Shown here: positions 45,810-51,131 of the stretch, piece by piece | Layout of the letters: every line of letters begins with the position of its first letter | Numbering within the stretch: the first letter of the stretch is position 1 | Source of the DNA: an uncultured archaeon | Lineage (GTDB): Archaea; Aenigmatarchaeota; Aenigmatarchaeia; CG10238-14; SCSR01 | Reading direction: 5' to 3' | Length of the DNA: 58,729 nucleotides | Assembly: GCA_964373665.1 (NCBI GenBank) | Contig: CAYJVM010000003.1 | Coordinates: 1 to 58,729, forward strand | The notes under the pieces: generated by a model | Database searches by the model: none | What the model was told of the DNA's origin: nothing | Seen by the model: the letters and a program-made list of their open reading frames with translations, nothing else | Translations under genes and position numbers: made by a program

Positions 45810-47081
45810 ATGAGAAACCGGAAAATAGAAAGGATATTTGAATTAAGTTCTTTAAATGAGGTAGAAAATAGACTAAATAACTGCTATCTCTTGCATTTAA
45901 TGAAAGAAAAACCCATTTTTAAATTGCGGATCAAGTTTTTTAATGATTACATTTTAGCTGTCAACTTGTTAACAAAAGGACTAGAACTGTCTGAAGTTGC
46001 AAGAATTCTTGAAATTAAAGAAGGTACAATTAAAAGTTGGTTAAGAGGTCAGATCCCACATTTAATAAGACTCGCCTCTTTAATACCTTCAGAGAATCCT
46101 AAACCCTATTATAAATGGTTACCTTTCCTTATAAAAAAAGGATGGAAATATAGTAGATTTATTCAGGTTCCAATCAAAATAAAGGATCACAATGATATCT
46201 TGGAAGTTTTAGGCCAATTAAAAGAATTAAGATCTGACAAATTTAAAGATCAGGAAAATAAATTCGGATATACCGATAAAGAATTTGCACTTGGTTATGT
46301 TATTGGTATGATGATTAGTGATTCTGATAAGGATAGGTCAATAGAAACAGTGTCTACTCGATTAAGACTTGGGTTATCTAGAAAGCACGAATCAAATCTT
46401 AATATAGGAGAAGCTTTTTGTTATTGCTTAGGTAAATTAGGTATAATGACTAAAAGAGCCAAAGATGGTAAATCTTCTCGTAAAACACCGCATGGAAAAT
46501 TTATATGGAGGTCACAATATTCACCATTAATTTCTTGGTTAAAACAGTGTTGCTTAGGTCTAAATTTAAAAGAGACAACCACGTATACCCCCGTTAAAGT
46601 AAATTGGATACTAAAGTCTCCAGACAAATTTAAGGCAGCCGTTTTAAATGGCATCTACGACGGCGACGGGTGTTCTTACATTAGGGGATGGCAAATAACT
46701 AATGCTTGTAGACCTAATCAAGTCTTTTTACAGAAACTATTAGAATTATTAGATATCAAATCAAAGATAAGAGGACCAAAAGTAATAATAGAGACTAAGG
46801 ACGATTTAAGAAAGGCTTCTGAACTTTGTTTATTTAAATTTTCTTTAGATAGGAAAGAGAAATCAAGAAAGTTAATTAAAATGCTAGAGAATAGCAAATA
46901 CATACATTCTCGTCAAGATTATGCGCAAATCAATGCAAGAATTTTAGAATTATACAAGACTGGTCATAAACCACGAGATATACCTCTTAAAATATTTGAG
47001 GAATTTGGAATAGGTATACATCCAAGAAGAATTTATACTATTTTAAAAGGAATTAGTGTTTTCAATGAACAAACCAATTAG
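45810..47081 (+). CDS. Free-standing HTH + LAGLIDADG-like protein
   Basis: HTH VARILEIKEGTIKSW; LGYVIGMMISD and LNGIYDGDG; AT-rich. Confidence 0.7.
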   Translation: MRNRKIERIFELSSLNEVENRLNNCYLLHLMKEKPIFKLRIKFFNDYILAVNLLTKGLELSEVARILEIKEGTIKSWLRGQIPHLIRLASLIPSENPKPYYKWLPFLIKKGWKYSRFIQVPIKIKDHNDILEVLGQLKELRSDKFKDQENKFGYTDKEFALGYVIGMMISDSDKDRSIETVSTRLRLGLSRKHESNLNIGEAFCYCLGKLGIMTKRAKDGKSSRKTPHGKFIWRSQYSPLISWLKQCCLGLNLKETTTYTPVKVNWILKSPDKFKAAVLNGIYDGDGCSYIRGWQITNACRPNQVFLQKLLELLDIKSKIRGPKVIIETKDDLRKASELCLFKFSLDRKEKSRKLIKMLENSKYIHSRQDYAQINARILELYKTGHKPRDIPLKIFEEFGIGIHPRRIYTILKGISVFNEQTN

Positions 47082-48372
47082 AACTATTCTTCTTGGGGCA
47101 GCAGGTCGCGAATTTCATAACTTCAACATGGTATACCGTAACAATCCGAATTATGAAGTTGTTGCTTTTACAGCCACACAAATACCAGGTATAGCTGGTA
47201 GGAAATATCCAAAAGAATTGGCTGGAAAATTGTATCCGCAAGGTATTCCAATCTATTCAGAAACACTTCTAGCAGATTTAATTAAAAAGTTCAAAATTGA
47301 TTTAGTTGTGTTTGCATACAGCGATGTTACTCATGAGCATGTGATGCACAAGGCATCTATAGCTTTGGCAAATGGCGCAGATTTTGTTTTGTTAGGTCCA
47401 AATTCAACAATGTTGCACTCGTCCAAACCCGTGATATCTGTCACTGCTGTCAGGACAGGCTCTGGCAAAAGCCAAGTAACAAGAAAGATAGCAAAAATTC
47501 TCAAAAGTAGAGGAAAGAAAGTCGTAATTATTCGTCATCCAATGCCATACGGTAATTTAAGCAAGCAGATATGCCAGAGGTTTGCGTCGTACGACGACCT
47601 GGAAAAGCATAACGTGACGATTGAAGAGAGGGAGGAATACGAGCCACATATCAACAACGGGTTTGTCGTATACGCTGGCGTGGATTATGAAAAAATTCTG
47701 AGAGAAGCCGAGAAGGAGGCGGATGTAATTGTATTTGACGGGGGCAACAATGATTTCTCCTTCATCAAATCTGACCTGTACATAGTTGTCGCAGATCCGC
47801 ACAGAGCTGACCATGAATTAAAATATCATCCAGGTGAAGCGAATGTAAGGATGGCAGATGTAGTGATAATTAACAAGATAGACTCTGCTAAAAAAGAAGA
47901 CGTCAAAAGAGTGACGACGAATGTCAAGTCGATTAATCCAGAAGCGAGAATAATTCTTGCAAAATCCGTGGTGAGCGTTAATAAGCCTGATTTGATTAAA
48001 GGCAAACGAGTCGTCATAGTCGAGGACGGCCCTACATTGACGCATGGGGGTATGCCTTATGGGGCTGGCACGATAGCGGCGCGCAAGTACAAGTCGAAGA
48101 TAGTGGATGCCAGCAAGTATGCTGTCGGCTCCATTAAGGATGTGTATAAAGCGTTTTCACATTTGAAGAAGGAACTTCCGGCGATGGGATACAGCAAAGA
48201 ACAGATTAAGGAGTTGGAGAAGACGATAAATGCCGCAAAGGCCGATGCAGTTATTGACGCCACACCTGTTGCTCTAGGGAGATTGATTAAAATAAACAAG
48301 CCTGTTGTTGAAGTCGATTACGAGCTGGAGGAAGTTGGCAAGCTGGATTTGAGGAAGGTCATTAAGTTATAA
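47065..48372 (+). CDS. arcE: COG2403 P-loop protein, probable arginine synthetase (ArcE-like)
   Basis: GAAGREFHNFN, AVRTGSGKS, RHPMPYG, DGGNND, EDGPTLTHGGM; near arcC and OTCase. Confidence 0.75.
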   Translation: MNKPIRTILLGAAGREFHNFNMVYRNNPNYEVVAFTATQIPGIAGRKYPKELAGKLYPQGIPIYSETLLADLIKKFKIDLVVFAYSDVTHEHVMHKASIALANGADFVLLGPNSTMLHSSKPVISVTAVRTGSGKSQVTRKIAKILKSRGKKVVIIRHPMPYGNLSKQICQRFASYDDLEKHNVTIEEREEYEPHINNGFVVYAGVDYEKILREAEKEADVIVFDGGNNDFSFIKSDLYIVVADPHRADHELKYHPGEANVRMADVVIINKIDSAKKEDVKRVTTNVKSINPEARIILAKSVVSVNKPDLIKGKRVVIVEDGPTLTHGGMPYGAGTIAARKYKSKIVDASKYAVGSIKDVYKAFSHLKKELPAMGYSKEQIKELEKTINAAKADAVIDATPVALGRLIKINKPVVEVDYELEEVGKLDLRKVIKL

Positions 48373-48406
48373 AAGCATTTAAATCTTTTGCTGTCCTTTA
48401 CTTAGT

Positions 48407-49248: not shown

Positions 49249-49413
49249 GGCGACAACTAGTAGCGATGATGGATGAAATGATTAGTGCGAAACCTGAAGC
49301 TTCAGTGAAAACTTGGTGGACGGGATATATTATGCATGAAAATACTTGTAAATTGAGAAGGAGACTTGAGATTTCATAAATTCAAATAATAGTGTGCAAA
49401 GCAAAATATTATT

Positions 49414-50259
49414 ATGAAATTGGCTGTTGTAGCTTTAGGCGGGAATTCATTGATTCATCCTAAGGAACGCGGGACTGCAGACAGGCAGATTAAACGCGTT
49501 AACACGACAATTAATCATCTTAAGACTCTTGCAAAAAAGTTTACCTTAGTTTTAACAAATGGGTCGGGACCTCAAGTGGGTAATTTATTACTTCAACAAA
49601 AGCTTTCCAAGAAAATGCTACCAGAAATGCCTTTAGATACTTTAGACTCTATGGTGCAAGGACAACTAGGTTATTGGATACAGCAAGCAGTTGAAAATGT
49701 TTTACATAAGAATGCCGTTACTATTATCACGCGTGTACTCGTTGACAGAAAAGACAAAGCGTTCAAGCACCCTACAAAACCAATAGGCCAGAAAAGTTGG
49801 AAAAAACTAGTGGCATCACCACGACCAGTAGAAATAATCGACATAGAAGAAATCTCGACTCTGACAAAACAGAATTTTGTTGTCATTGCGTGTGGTGGTG
49901 GAGGCATCCCAGTAATTAAAAGAGGTGGGAAGTTTACTGGAGTAGAAGCTGTGATAGATAAGGATCATGCCACACAGAAGCTTGCTACTCAATTGAAAGC
50001 CGAAATCATAATTTTCCTTACAGATGTAGATTATGTATATTACAATTACGGAAAGCCGAATCAGAGAAAACTCCGGAAATTAAGTGTCAAAGACGCGATA
50101 AGATATCTTAATGAAAATCAGTTCAAAGAGGGTTCGATGAAACCCAAGATTGAGGCGAGTATAGAGTTTTTGAAGAGAGGCGGGAAGAAAGTATTGATTA
50201 CGTCCCCTGAGAAATTGAATTTAGCTTTGAGAGGGAAATCTGGCACGGTGATCGAATGA
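49414..50259 (+). CDS. arcC: Carbamate kinase
   Basis: VVALGGNS, NGSGPQVG, PTKPIG, GGGGIPV, VIDKD, GSMKPK. Confidence 0.92.
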   Translation: MKLAVVALGGNSLIHPKERGTADRQIKRVNTTINHLKTLAKKFTLVLTNGSGPQVGNLLLQQKLSKKMLPEMPLDTLDSMVQGQLGYWIQQAVENVLHKNAVTIITRVLVDRKDKAFKHPTKPIGQKSWKKLVASPRPVEIIDIEEISTLTKQNFVVIACGGGGIPVIKRGGKFTGVEAVIDKDHATQKLATQLKAEIIIFLTDVDYVYYNYGKPNQRKLRKLSVKDAIRYLNENQFKEGSMKPKIEASIEFLKRGGKKVLITSPEKLNLALRGKSGTVIE

Positions 50260-51131
50260 AAAAAGACTTGTTATCAATAAATGACTTGACTAAAGGGGAC
50301 ATGGAAAATATTTTCAGGTTGACTGACAAGTTGAAAAACAAGAGGACAAAAGACCTTCAGGGAAAGAACATCGCCATGATTTTTGAAAAGCCTTCGACTA
50401 GAACCAAGGTTTCCTTTGCGGTAGCAATTAATCAACTAGGCGGGAACTATATTAGCCTGAACTGGAATGAGATCCAGCTCGGCAGAGGTGAGACAATCGA
50501 GGACACAGTTAATGTCCTGGAAAGGTATACGGACATGATAATAGCCCGGGTCAATTCCCATGATGAGTTGATTAGGATGTTCAAGGTTGCAGACGTGCCG
50601 GTTATTAACGCATTATCTGACTTGGAGCATCCATGCCAGGCTTTGGCTGACTTGTACACCATTAGAAATAAAAAGAAAAAGCTGAATGGATTGAAGATAG
50701 TTTTTCTGGGCGACGGCGCCAACAACACATTCCATTCGCTGGTGTTGGCATGCGAAAAATTCGGCATGAATATAGTTGTATCATGCCATCCAAGTTACAA
50801 GCCCAAGATAAAGGCCAGTTATAAAATTATAGAAAACCCTGAAGAAGCTGTCAATGGGGCGGATGTGATTTATGTGGACACTTTCGTCAGCATGGGCGAT
50901 GAAGCTGAGAAAGAGAAAAGGCTAAGGGACTTGGCGAAATACCAGTTGAATTCTAAATTGATCAAGTTGGCCAAGAAGGACGTCATCATAATGCATCCGC
51001 TGCCTGCGCATAGGGGGGAGGAGATAACTTCTGACGTTATAGACGGTAAGAATTCTGTAGTTTTTGACCAGGCTGAGAACAGGCTTCACACGGCAAAGGC
51101 CATACTCTATCTCCTGATGAAAAAGCCTTAA
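50256..51131 (+). CDS. arcB: Ornithine carbamoyltransferase
   Basis: FEKPSTRT, HPCQALAD, DTFVSMG, HPLP, QAENR. Confidence 0.94.
   Translation: MKKDLLSINDLTKGDMENIFRLTDKLKNKRTKDLQGKNIAMIFEKPSTRTKVSFAVAINQLGGNYISLNWNEIQLGRGETIEDTVNVLERYTDMIIARVNSHDELIRMFKVADVPVINALSDLEHPCQALADLYTIRNKKKKLNGLKIVFLGDGANNTFHSLVLACEKFGMNIVVSCHPSYKPKIKASYKIIENPEEAVNGADVIYVDTFVSMGDEAEKEKRLRDLAKYQLNSKLIKLAKKDVIIMHPLPAHRGEEITSDVIDGKNSVVFDQAENRLHTAKAILYLLMKKP

Follow-up and report, generated by a model that had tools for sequence, protein, structure and literature searches.

The gene cluster arcE-arcC-arcB at positions 47065-51131 of a 58,729-nucleotide contig from an uncultured archaeon (the window; contig CAYJVM010000003.1 of assembly GCA_964373665.1) probably specifies a catabolic arginine synthetase pathway, which would yield 2 ATP per arginine by substrate-level phosphorylation and would do so without arginine deiminase (ADI). 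The cluster combines a COG2403-type P-loop protein, an orthologue of arginine synthetase (ArcE) as judged from sequence, phylogeny and fold, with a carbamate kinase (CK) and an ornithine carbamoyltransferase (OTC). The window represents contig 3 of an assembly (G000) that comprises 876 kb in 32 contigs and is 92% complete, with a G+C content of 42% and a genome size of about 0.9 Mb. Given the size of this assembly and the Aenigmarchaeota names of the closest proteins recovered in a homologue search, the host can be identified as a small-genome DPANN archaeon.

Gene calls were based on six-frame open reading frames (ORFs) and family scans. The first gene of the trio, arcE (47065-48372, forward strand), encodes a protein of 435 aa, and its ORF has an alternative GTG start at 47056. 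It is followed on the same strand by arcC (49414-50259), which encodes a CK of 281 aa, and by arcB/argF (50256-51131), which encodes an OTC of 291 aa and whose start overlaps the stop of arcC by 4 bases. An earlier note on this DNA had described a COG2403 gene clustered with carbamate kinase and OTC in a probable small-genome archaeon, and the ORFs, the family scores and the conserved gene order bear out this grouping, just as the Aenigmarchaeota affinity and the 876-kb assembly bear out the host assignment. The three genes of the cluster stand as described there, to which two inserts that the note had missed are to be added, namely a 248-aa ORF and a LAGLIDADG-like gene. The note had also found no arcA in the window; a search for the ADI family PF02274 likewise gives no match in the whole 876-kb genome.

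The proposed route follows the one published for Thermococcus kodakarensis, in which ArcE, OTC and CK act in succession (PMC11032458). Arginine for ArcE would probably be obtained through uptake by a permease or through release by an aminopeptidase, both of which are encoded beside the cluster. ArcE would convert arginine, ADP and Pi to citrulline, ATP and NH3, OTC would then phosphorolyse citrulline to ornithine and carbamoyl phosphate, and CK would transfer the phosphate of the latter to ADP, giving a second ATP and carbamate. The ornithine would probably be converted to glutamate by a class-III aminotransferase and an aldehyde dehydrogenase (ALDH) from the same neighborhood. The characterized ArcE is a tetramer with a sigmoidal response to ADP, and its reaction is reversible with an equilibrium constant of about 10 toward ATP formation (PMC11032458). 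In the present archaeon, what the enzymes catalyze, which way the flux runs and what the permease, the aminotransferase and the ALDH do are inferences from the genes and their context.

Homologues of arcE number in the thousands, and the best 120 of them share 64-80% identity and come from both archaeal and bacterial phyla. Their source names are either "GTPase" or "cyclic 2,3-diphosphoglycerate synthase". These names, along with weak sequence and fold similarity, are the grounds for an alternative in which the COG2403 gene would encode a cyclic 2,3-diphosphoglycerate (cDPG) synthetase that makes a compatible solute; we regard this alternative as improbable to the point of being negligible. 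The window protein aligns with a Thermococcus peptonophilus protein (P0230) at 65% identity over 430 residues with a single gap. The link from such proteins to the characterized ArcE of T. kodakarensis (TK2200) was drawn indirectly, in steps. A protein (P0104) that is encoded on a Thermococcus-like contig of 2.0 Mb, amid archaeal genes, and has Thermococcus and Pyrococcus proteins as its sequence neighbors leads to a cluster of proteins (90% identity, 201 members) that contains P0230 and covers Thermococcus and Palaeococcus. This cluster in turn connects to the C-terminus of TK2200, as deduced from the primer ExTK2200_R in the supplement of the 2026 paper (PMC13260591). The reverse complement of the gene-specific part of this primer reads TGC GAG AAG CTC AAG AAG TGA, or CEKLKK-stop, which is the exact C-terminus of the T. 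peptonophilus protein P0230 and of the Pyrococcus furiosus protein, whereas the cDPG synthetase-type proteins differ at this point.

The residue pattern of the window protein is likewise that of the ArcE family. It contains the motifs TGSGKS (Walker A), DGGNND, NKID and EEREEYEP, and of the 135 columns with a conservation of 97% or higher among 237 family members it retains 133, the two exceptions being D16E and G249D. In a maximum-likelihood tree of 24 ArcE-type and 8 cDPG synthetase-type proteins, the two groups are split with 100/100 support, with roughly ten substitutions per site along the branch between them, and the window protein falls on the ArcE side amid short branches. True cDPG synthetases, for which the aligned segment of PDB 9sxb served as the query, form a separate family marked by PF27272 in precomputed domain annotation; this domain is found on 36 of the 37 cDPG synthetase-type matches and on none of about 240 ArcE-type proteins. 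The similarity of the window protein to the cDPG synthetase 9sxb (E 2.5e-10 over 116 residues) is matched by that of a Thermococcus ArcE-type protein, which does no better (about 1e-10).

Structural comparisons point in the same direction. The AlphaFold model of the window protein has a predicted local distance difference test score (pLDDT) of 93.2, and a Foldseek search with it recovers the cDPG synthetase 8oru (E 2.5e-18) and the Aquifex LpxK 4ehy (E 2.4e-8), the latter being the structure that was matched by the TK2200 model in Michimori et al. (PMC11032458). The structural alignment with the Methanothermus fervidus cDPG synthetase has only 16% identity and a TM-score of 0.47. ArcE-type and cDPG synthetase-type genes coexist in the same species, such as Palaeococcus pacificus and Thermococcus sp. 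Bubb.Bath, and the operon partners of the gene in the window are arcC and arcB. The earlier note had named clustering with cDPG synthetases as the result that would speak against its proposal; no such clustering was observed, the tree split, the retained columns and the fold match agree on an ArcE placement, and the grouping with the Thermococcales ArcE proteins at 65% identity is in line with what the note had supposed. As NCBI calls both types "cyclic 2,3-diphosphoglycerate synthase", the ArcE family is widely misnamed, and the name is misleading on a large scale. Several Thermococcales carry both types (P0132, P0230 and P0238 of the ArcE type; P0243, P0255 and P0275 of the cDPG synthetase type with PF27272). 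The ArcE homologue of one relative (G014, C68:1814-3121) has an in-frame TAA, and may be a pseudogene or reflect a sequencing error.

The association of the three genes extends well beyond the window. Five genomes of the genus preserve the order ArcE-CK-OTC, and the loci around the OTC genes of the relatives reveal a genus-wide arrangement of aminotransferase, M42 peptidase, permease (in some), ArcE, CK, OTC and ALDH. Of 80 named loci in other phyla, 15 place ArcE next to CK and/or OTC, and in nine of the 15 the order is ArcE-CK-OTC; these nine come from Acidobacteriota, Aminicenantes, Eubacteriales, Myxococcota and Woesearchaeota. A contig scan that listed the 80 closest loci had none from Thermococcus among them. 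Across a comparison set of 41 Aenigmarchaeota relatives, ArcE is present in 14, OTC in 16 and CK in 11, and each of the 11 CK-bearing genomes also carries both ArcE and OTC (Fisher p = 1e-7 for CK with ArcE by genome, and 1e-3 by genus). The clustering is thus not a matter of chance. The cluster also lies in an amino-acid catabolic island comprising the aminotransferase, the M42 aminopeptidase, an APC-family permease and the ALDH, and it is the strict co-occurrence of CK, ArcE and OTC, taken together with these catabolic neighbors, that favors the catabolic direction.

The remainder of the genome adds to this picture. Besides ADI, a search of the window's own genome recovered nothing above the cut-off for argG and no match to Lyase_1 (argH). 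Its amino-acid kinase search returned only CK and a UMP-kinase-like protein, and hence no kinase of the ArgB or LysZ type. This pattern, in which the trio occurs without ADI, argG, argH and argB, is what would be expected of a catabolic ArcE pathway that replaces ADI.

Several observations weigh against the catabolic reading, and the first group of these concerns peculiarities of the enzymes. In ArcE, the substitution G249D affects a nearly invariant glycine. The CK scores 287 bits against NF009007, above the cut-off of 266, but with 327 bits it remains below the cut-off of 358 of the arcC equivalog TIGR00746. It also lacks about 22 residues of the protruding subdomain when compared with 1b7b, where they lie between residues 132 and 154. 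The loop from TKPIG to SPxP becomes shorter in steps, from about 40 residues in solved carbamate kinases to 27 in four congeners and 13 in the window, G006 and G007; the 13-residue form thus occurs in three species, being found at loci L012 and L015 besides the window. The OTC has STRTK in place of STRTR, and HPLP in place of HCLP, so that a proline replaces the ornithine-contacting cysteine. The HPLP version, which is like that of aspartate carbamoyltransferase (ATCase), is found in the OTCs throughout the genus (L009, L011, L012 and L014-L017) and STRTK in several of its species, while HCLP is retained in more distant relatives and in all ArcE-linked OTCs of other phyla.

The restriction of HPLP to the genus and the reduction of the CK loop to 13 residues in three species could be taken to mean that the carbamoyltransferase and the truncated kinase mark a pathway for some other ureido or guanidino compound. 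Such a change of substrate appears very unlikely, as ArcE is unchanged at all but two of its conserved columns and the catalytic motifs TKPIG, DKD and PKI of CK are all in place. Moreover, the OTC retains the ornithine loop DxxxSMG (as DTFVSMG) and HPCQ, and exceeds the cut-offs of both OTC models (358 bits against 281 for TIGR00658, and 378 against 306 for NF001986), with the P. furiosus OTC 1a1s as its best PDB match (E 6e-81). It falls far below the cut-off of the N-acetylornithine carbamoyltransferase model, and a role as putrescine carbamoyltransferase in an agmatine route was rejected, since it reaches 257 bits where the cut-off is 500. Neither the motif changes in OTC, nor the CK loop, nor G249D, nor the carAB pair described below would appear to contradict the predicted arginine pathway.

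A second group of contrary observations concerns the context of the cluster. In the family scan, the permease did not resemble the known arginine/ornithine antiporters in any specific way, the public runs that carry this stretch are exclusively DNA metagenomes, and the absences noted for the genome are not absolute given its completeness of 92%. Of greater consequence is an intact carA-carB pair, which is found both in the window's own genome (C13:20289-24545) and in the congener G003 (C1:447772-451957). ATCase is absent from both genomes (in the former there is no second gene of the OTC family), and OMP (orotidine monophosphate) decarboxylase and HypF have no match in the window's genome. The presence of carAB without these three makes a biosynthetic role, or one in the supply of carbamoyl phosphate, possible. 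Furthermore, CK would waste carbamoyl phosphate that costs 2 ATP to make, which hints at an anabolic use or a use in carbamoylation.

If the cluster were anabolic, CarAB and OTC would make citrulline from scavenged ornithine, and ArcE would then add free ammonia at the expense of one ATP, replacing argininosuccinate synthetase (ASS) and argininosuccinate lyase (ASL). Such a role has been proposed for organisms, some bacteria among them, that have carbamoyl-phosphate synthetase, OTC and ArcE and are devoid of ASS and ASL, and arginine was formed in vivo (PMC11032458). It would accommodate the carAB pair without ATCase in the two genomes, the missing argG, argH, OMP decarboxylase and HypF, and the position of carAB within the cluster of G003, where it is flanked by arcE on one side and arcC-arcB on the other. 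We nevertheless consider it unlikely. A route to ornithine is not apparent, there being no kinase of the ArgB or LysZ type; carB is found in just three of the 41 relatives as against 11 with the trio; and CK is part of the operon and confined to genomes that have ArcE. The genome further encodes a NodU/CmcH/TobZ-type carbamoyltransferase of 548 aa with Carbam_trans_N and Carbam_trans_C domains (C2:11684-13330), a likely consumer of carbamoyl phosphate that would offer another sink for the product of CarAB and so weakens carAB as proof of an anabolic role. In the genome G019, carA and carB form an operon with a pyrB-like gene.

The same carbamoyltransferase could also be the destination of carbamoyl phosphate made by ArcE and OTC, which would then feed carbamoylation with the gain of ATP being secondary. 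This would be in keeping with the finding that T. kodakarensis needs arcE and arcB, and not arcC, for its carbamoyl-phosphate supply (PMC13260591), and with the lack of carAB in most congeners. The window's own genome, however, already has carAB, the consumers known from Thermococcus (the pyrimidine pathway and HypF) are absent from it, and the strict linkage of CK and ArcE in the relatives fits the recovery of ATP better; as the principal function of the cluster, this supply thus seems quite improbable. For the two carAB-bearing genomes, that of the window and G003, a bidirectional version is conceivable, if rather doubtful: ArcE would be the sole arginine-forming enzyme after the loss of ASS and ASL, with CarAB feeding OTC, and the cluster would be reversible according to energy charge, yielding 2 ATP from arginine or making arginine from ornithine at a cost of 3 ATP, with the HPLP version of OTC as an adaptation to two-way operation. 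The catabolic arginine synthetase pathway remains the reading that we prefer, and we hold it to be probable.

The genes upstream of the trio are consistent with this preference. Beyond an alanine dehydrogenase (39753-40865, reverse strand), which was recognized by its ORF and a family scan, lies a class-III aminotransferase of the acetylornithine/ornithine aminotransferase family (40908-43340, reverse strand) that is interrupted by an intein at 41295-42416. Its spliced extein of 436 aa reaches 543 bits with NF004426 (the model of the acetylornithine aminotransferase family) and 289 bits with the model of ornithine--oxo-acid transaminase, making it a candidate ornithine aminotransferase. Congeners of the window genome have an intein-free aminotransferase of about 435 aa in the same place. 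An M42 aminopeptidase (43380-44405, forward strand), a candidate supplier of free amino acids, was identified by family scan and synteny; it keeps its place across the genus, and a counterpart is found close to ArcE in Woesearchaeota (locus L020). The APC-family amino-acid permease (44402-45667, reverse strand), recognized on the same two grounds and a candidate carrier of arginine or ornithine, adjoins arcE in G003, G006 and G007. Downstream, an NAD(P)-dependent ALDH (51914-53389, forward strand), also assigned by family scan and synteny, is a candidate glutamate-5-semialdehyde (or related semialdehyde) dehydrogenase; it follows OTC throughout the genus and likewise in the Woesearchaeota locus L020 (63% identity). 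Between OTC and ALDH, two small ORFs of 98 and 122 aa (51157-51865), the second with faint winged-helix matches, are present only in the window's genome; in G006 the corresponding gap measures 33 bases.

The two inserts that the earlier description lacked are insertions peculiar to the window's own genome. The first is a LAGLIDADG-like/HTH (helix-turn-helix) gene of 423 aa (45810-47081, forward strand), which sits in a patch of 35% G+C, separates the permease from arcE, shares 17 bases with the start of the latter and is absent from this place in relatives. A copy with 33% identity lies on the opposite strand between arcE and arcC in G006 (L015 5122-6306), and a paralogue with 30% identity is found elsewhere in the window's genome (C17:7259-8821). 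It has the look of a free-standing mobile gene that has repeatedly landed in this cluster. The second insert is a 248-aa ORF (48407-49153, forward strand) without a family match and outside the pathway, which separates arcE from arcC here and is not found between them in relatives. It has paralogues at C5:11141-11911 (84%) and at 54729-55448, 5.6 kb downstream (42%). In four public metagenome runs, positions 44000-48420 and about 49290-53500 are each recovered as one contig, and the sole fragmented part, 48391-49320, which is deeper and has variant letters, corresponds to this ORF. The fragmentation is explained by the paralogues of the ORF, and the adjacency of arcE and arcC is supported by synteny in the relatives.

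Of the known systems, the closest is the pathway of T. kodakarensis (ArcE TK2200, ArcB TK0871, ArcC TK2158; Michimori et al. 2024, PMC11032458, and 2026, PMC13260591), which draws on the same three families of enzymes. ADI, ASS and ASL are lacking in both organisms, and a relation to the LpxK fold is predicted for ArcE in both. The two differ in that arcE, arcC and arcB are clustered here and dispersed in T. kodakarensis, and in the HPLP/STRTK version of OTC and the truncated CK loop of the present archaeon. The latter, the predicted host of the pathway, belongs to DPANN, has a genome of about 0.9 Mb and carries carAB but neither a pyrimidine pathway nor HypF. The ADI pathway (arcABC) resembles it in the OTC and CK steps and in operon logic, but begins with the hydrolytic ADI (PF02274), which is absent here; the reversible ArcE would save the energy of that step as a second ATP. 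The cDPG synthetases (M. fervidus, 8ork/8oru; the Thermococcus type, 9sxb) are distant homologues of similar length that share the P-loop core and the NCBI name with ArcE, but they belong to PF27272, catalyze the formation of an intramolecular phosphoanhydride and are unlinked to arcB and arcC.

The enzyme, the pathway and its wide distribution have already been published, and what is new is its Aenigmarchaeota (DPANN) host. In the library that was searched, no paper connects DPANN with arginine synthetase, and DPANN are not listed in the main text of the ArcE paper (PMC11032458). A 2020 preprint described a metagenome-assembled genome of a woesearchaeote with an orphan arcC, for which the energy route could not be reconstructed. 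The present analysis suggests that ArcE is the missing first enzyme. DPANN archaea are often described as being without a complete energy pathway. The ArcE-OTC-CK trio, found in 11 of the 41 Aenigmarchaeota relatives and in Woesearchaeota loci, would yield two ATP per arginine in such organisms. The nearest parallel in ecological terms is found in epibiotic Saccharibacteria, reduced-genome, symbiont-type organisms that likewise gain ATP from arginine through an acquired arginine deiminase system (PMC8764695), and the trio would be the archaeal counterpart, one ATP richer, of the system that benefits these ultrasmall bacteria.

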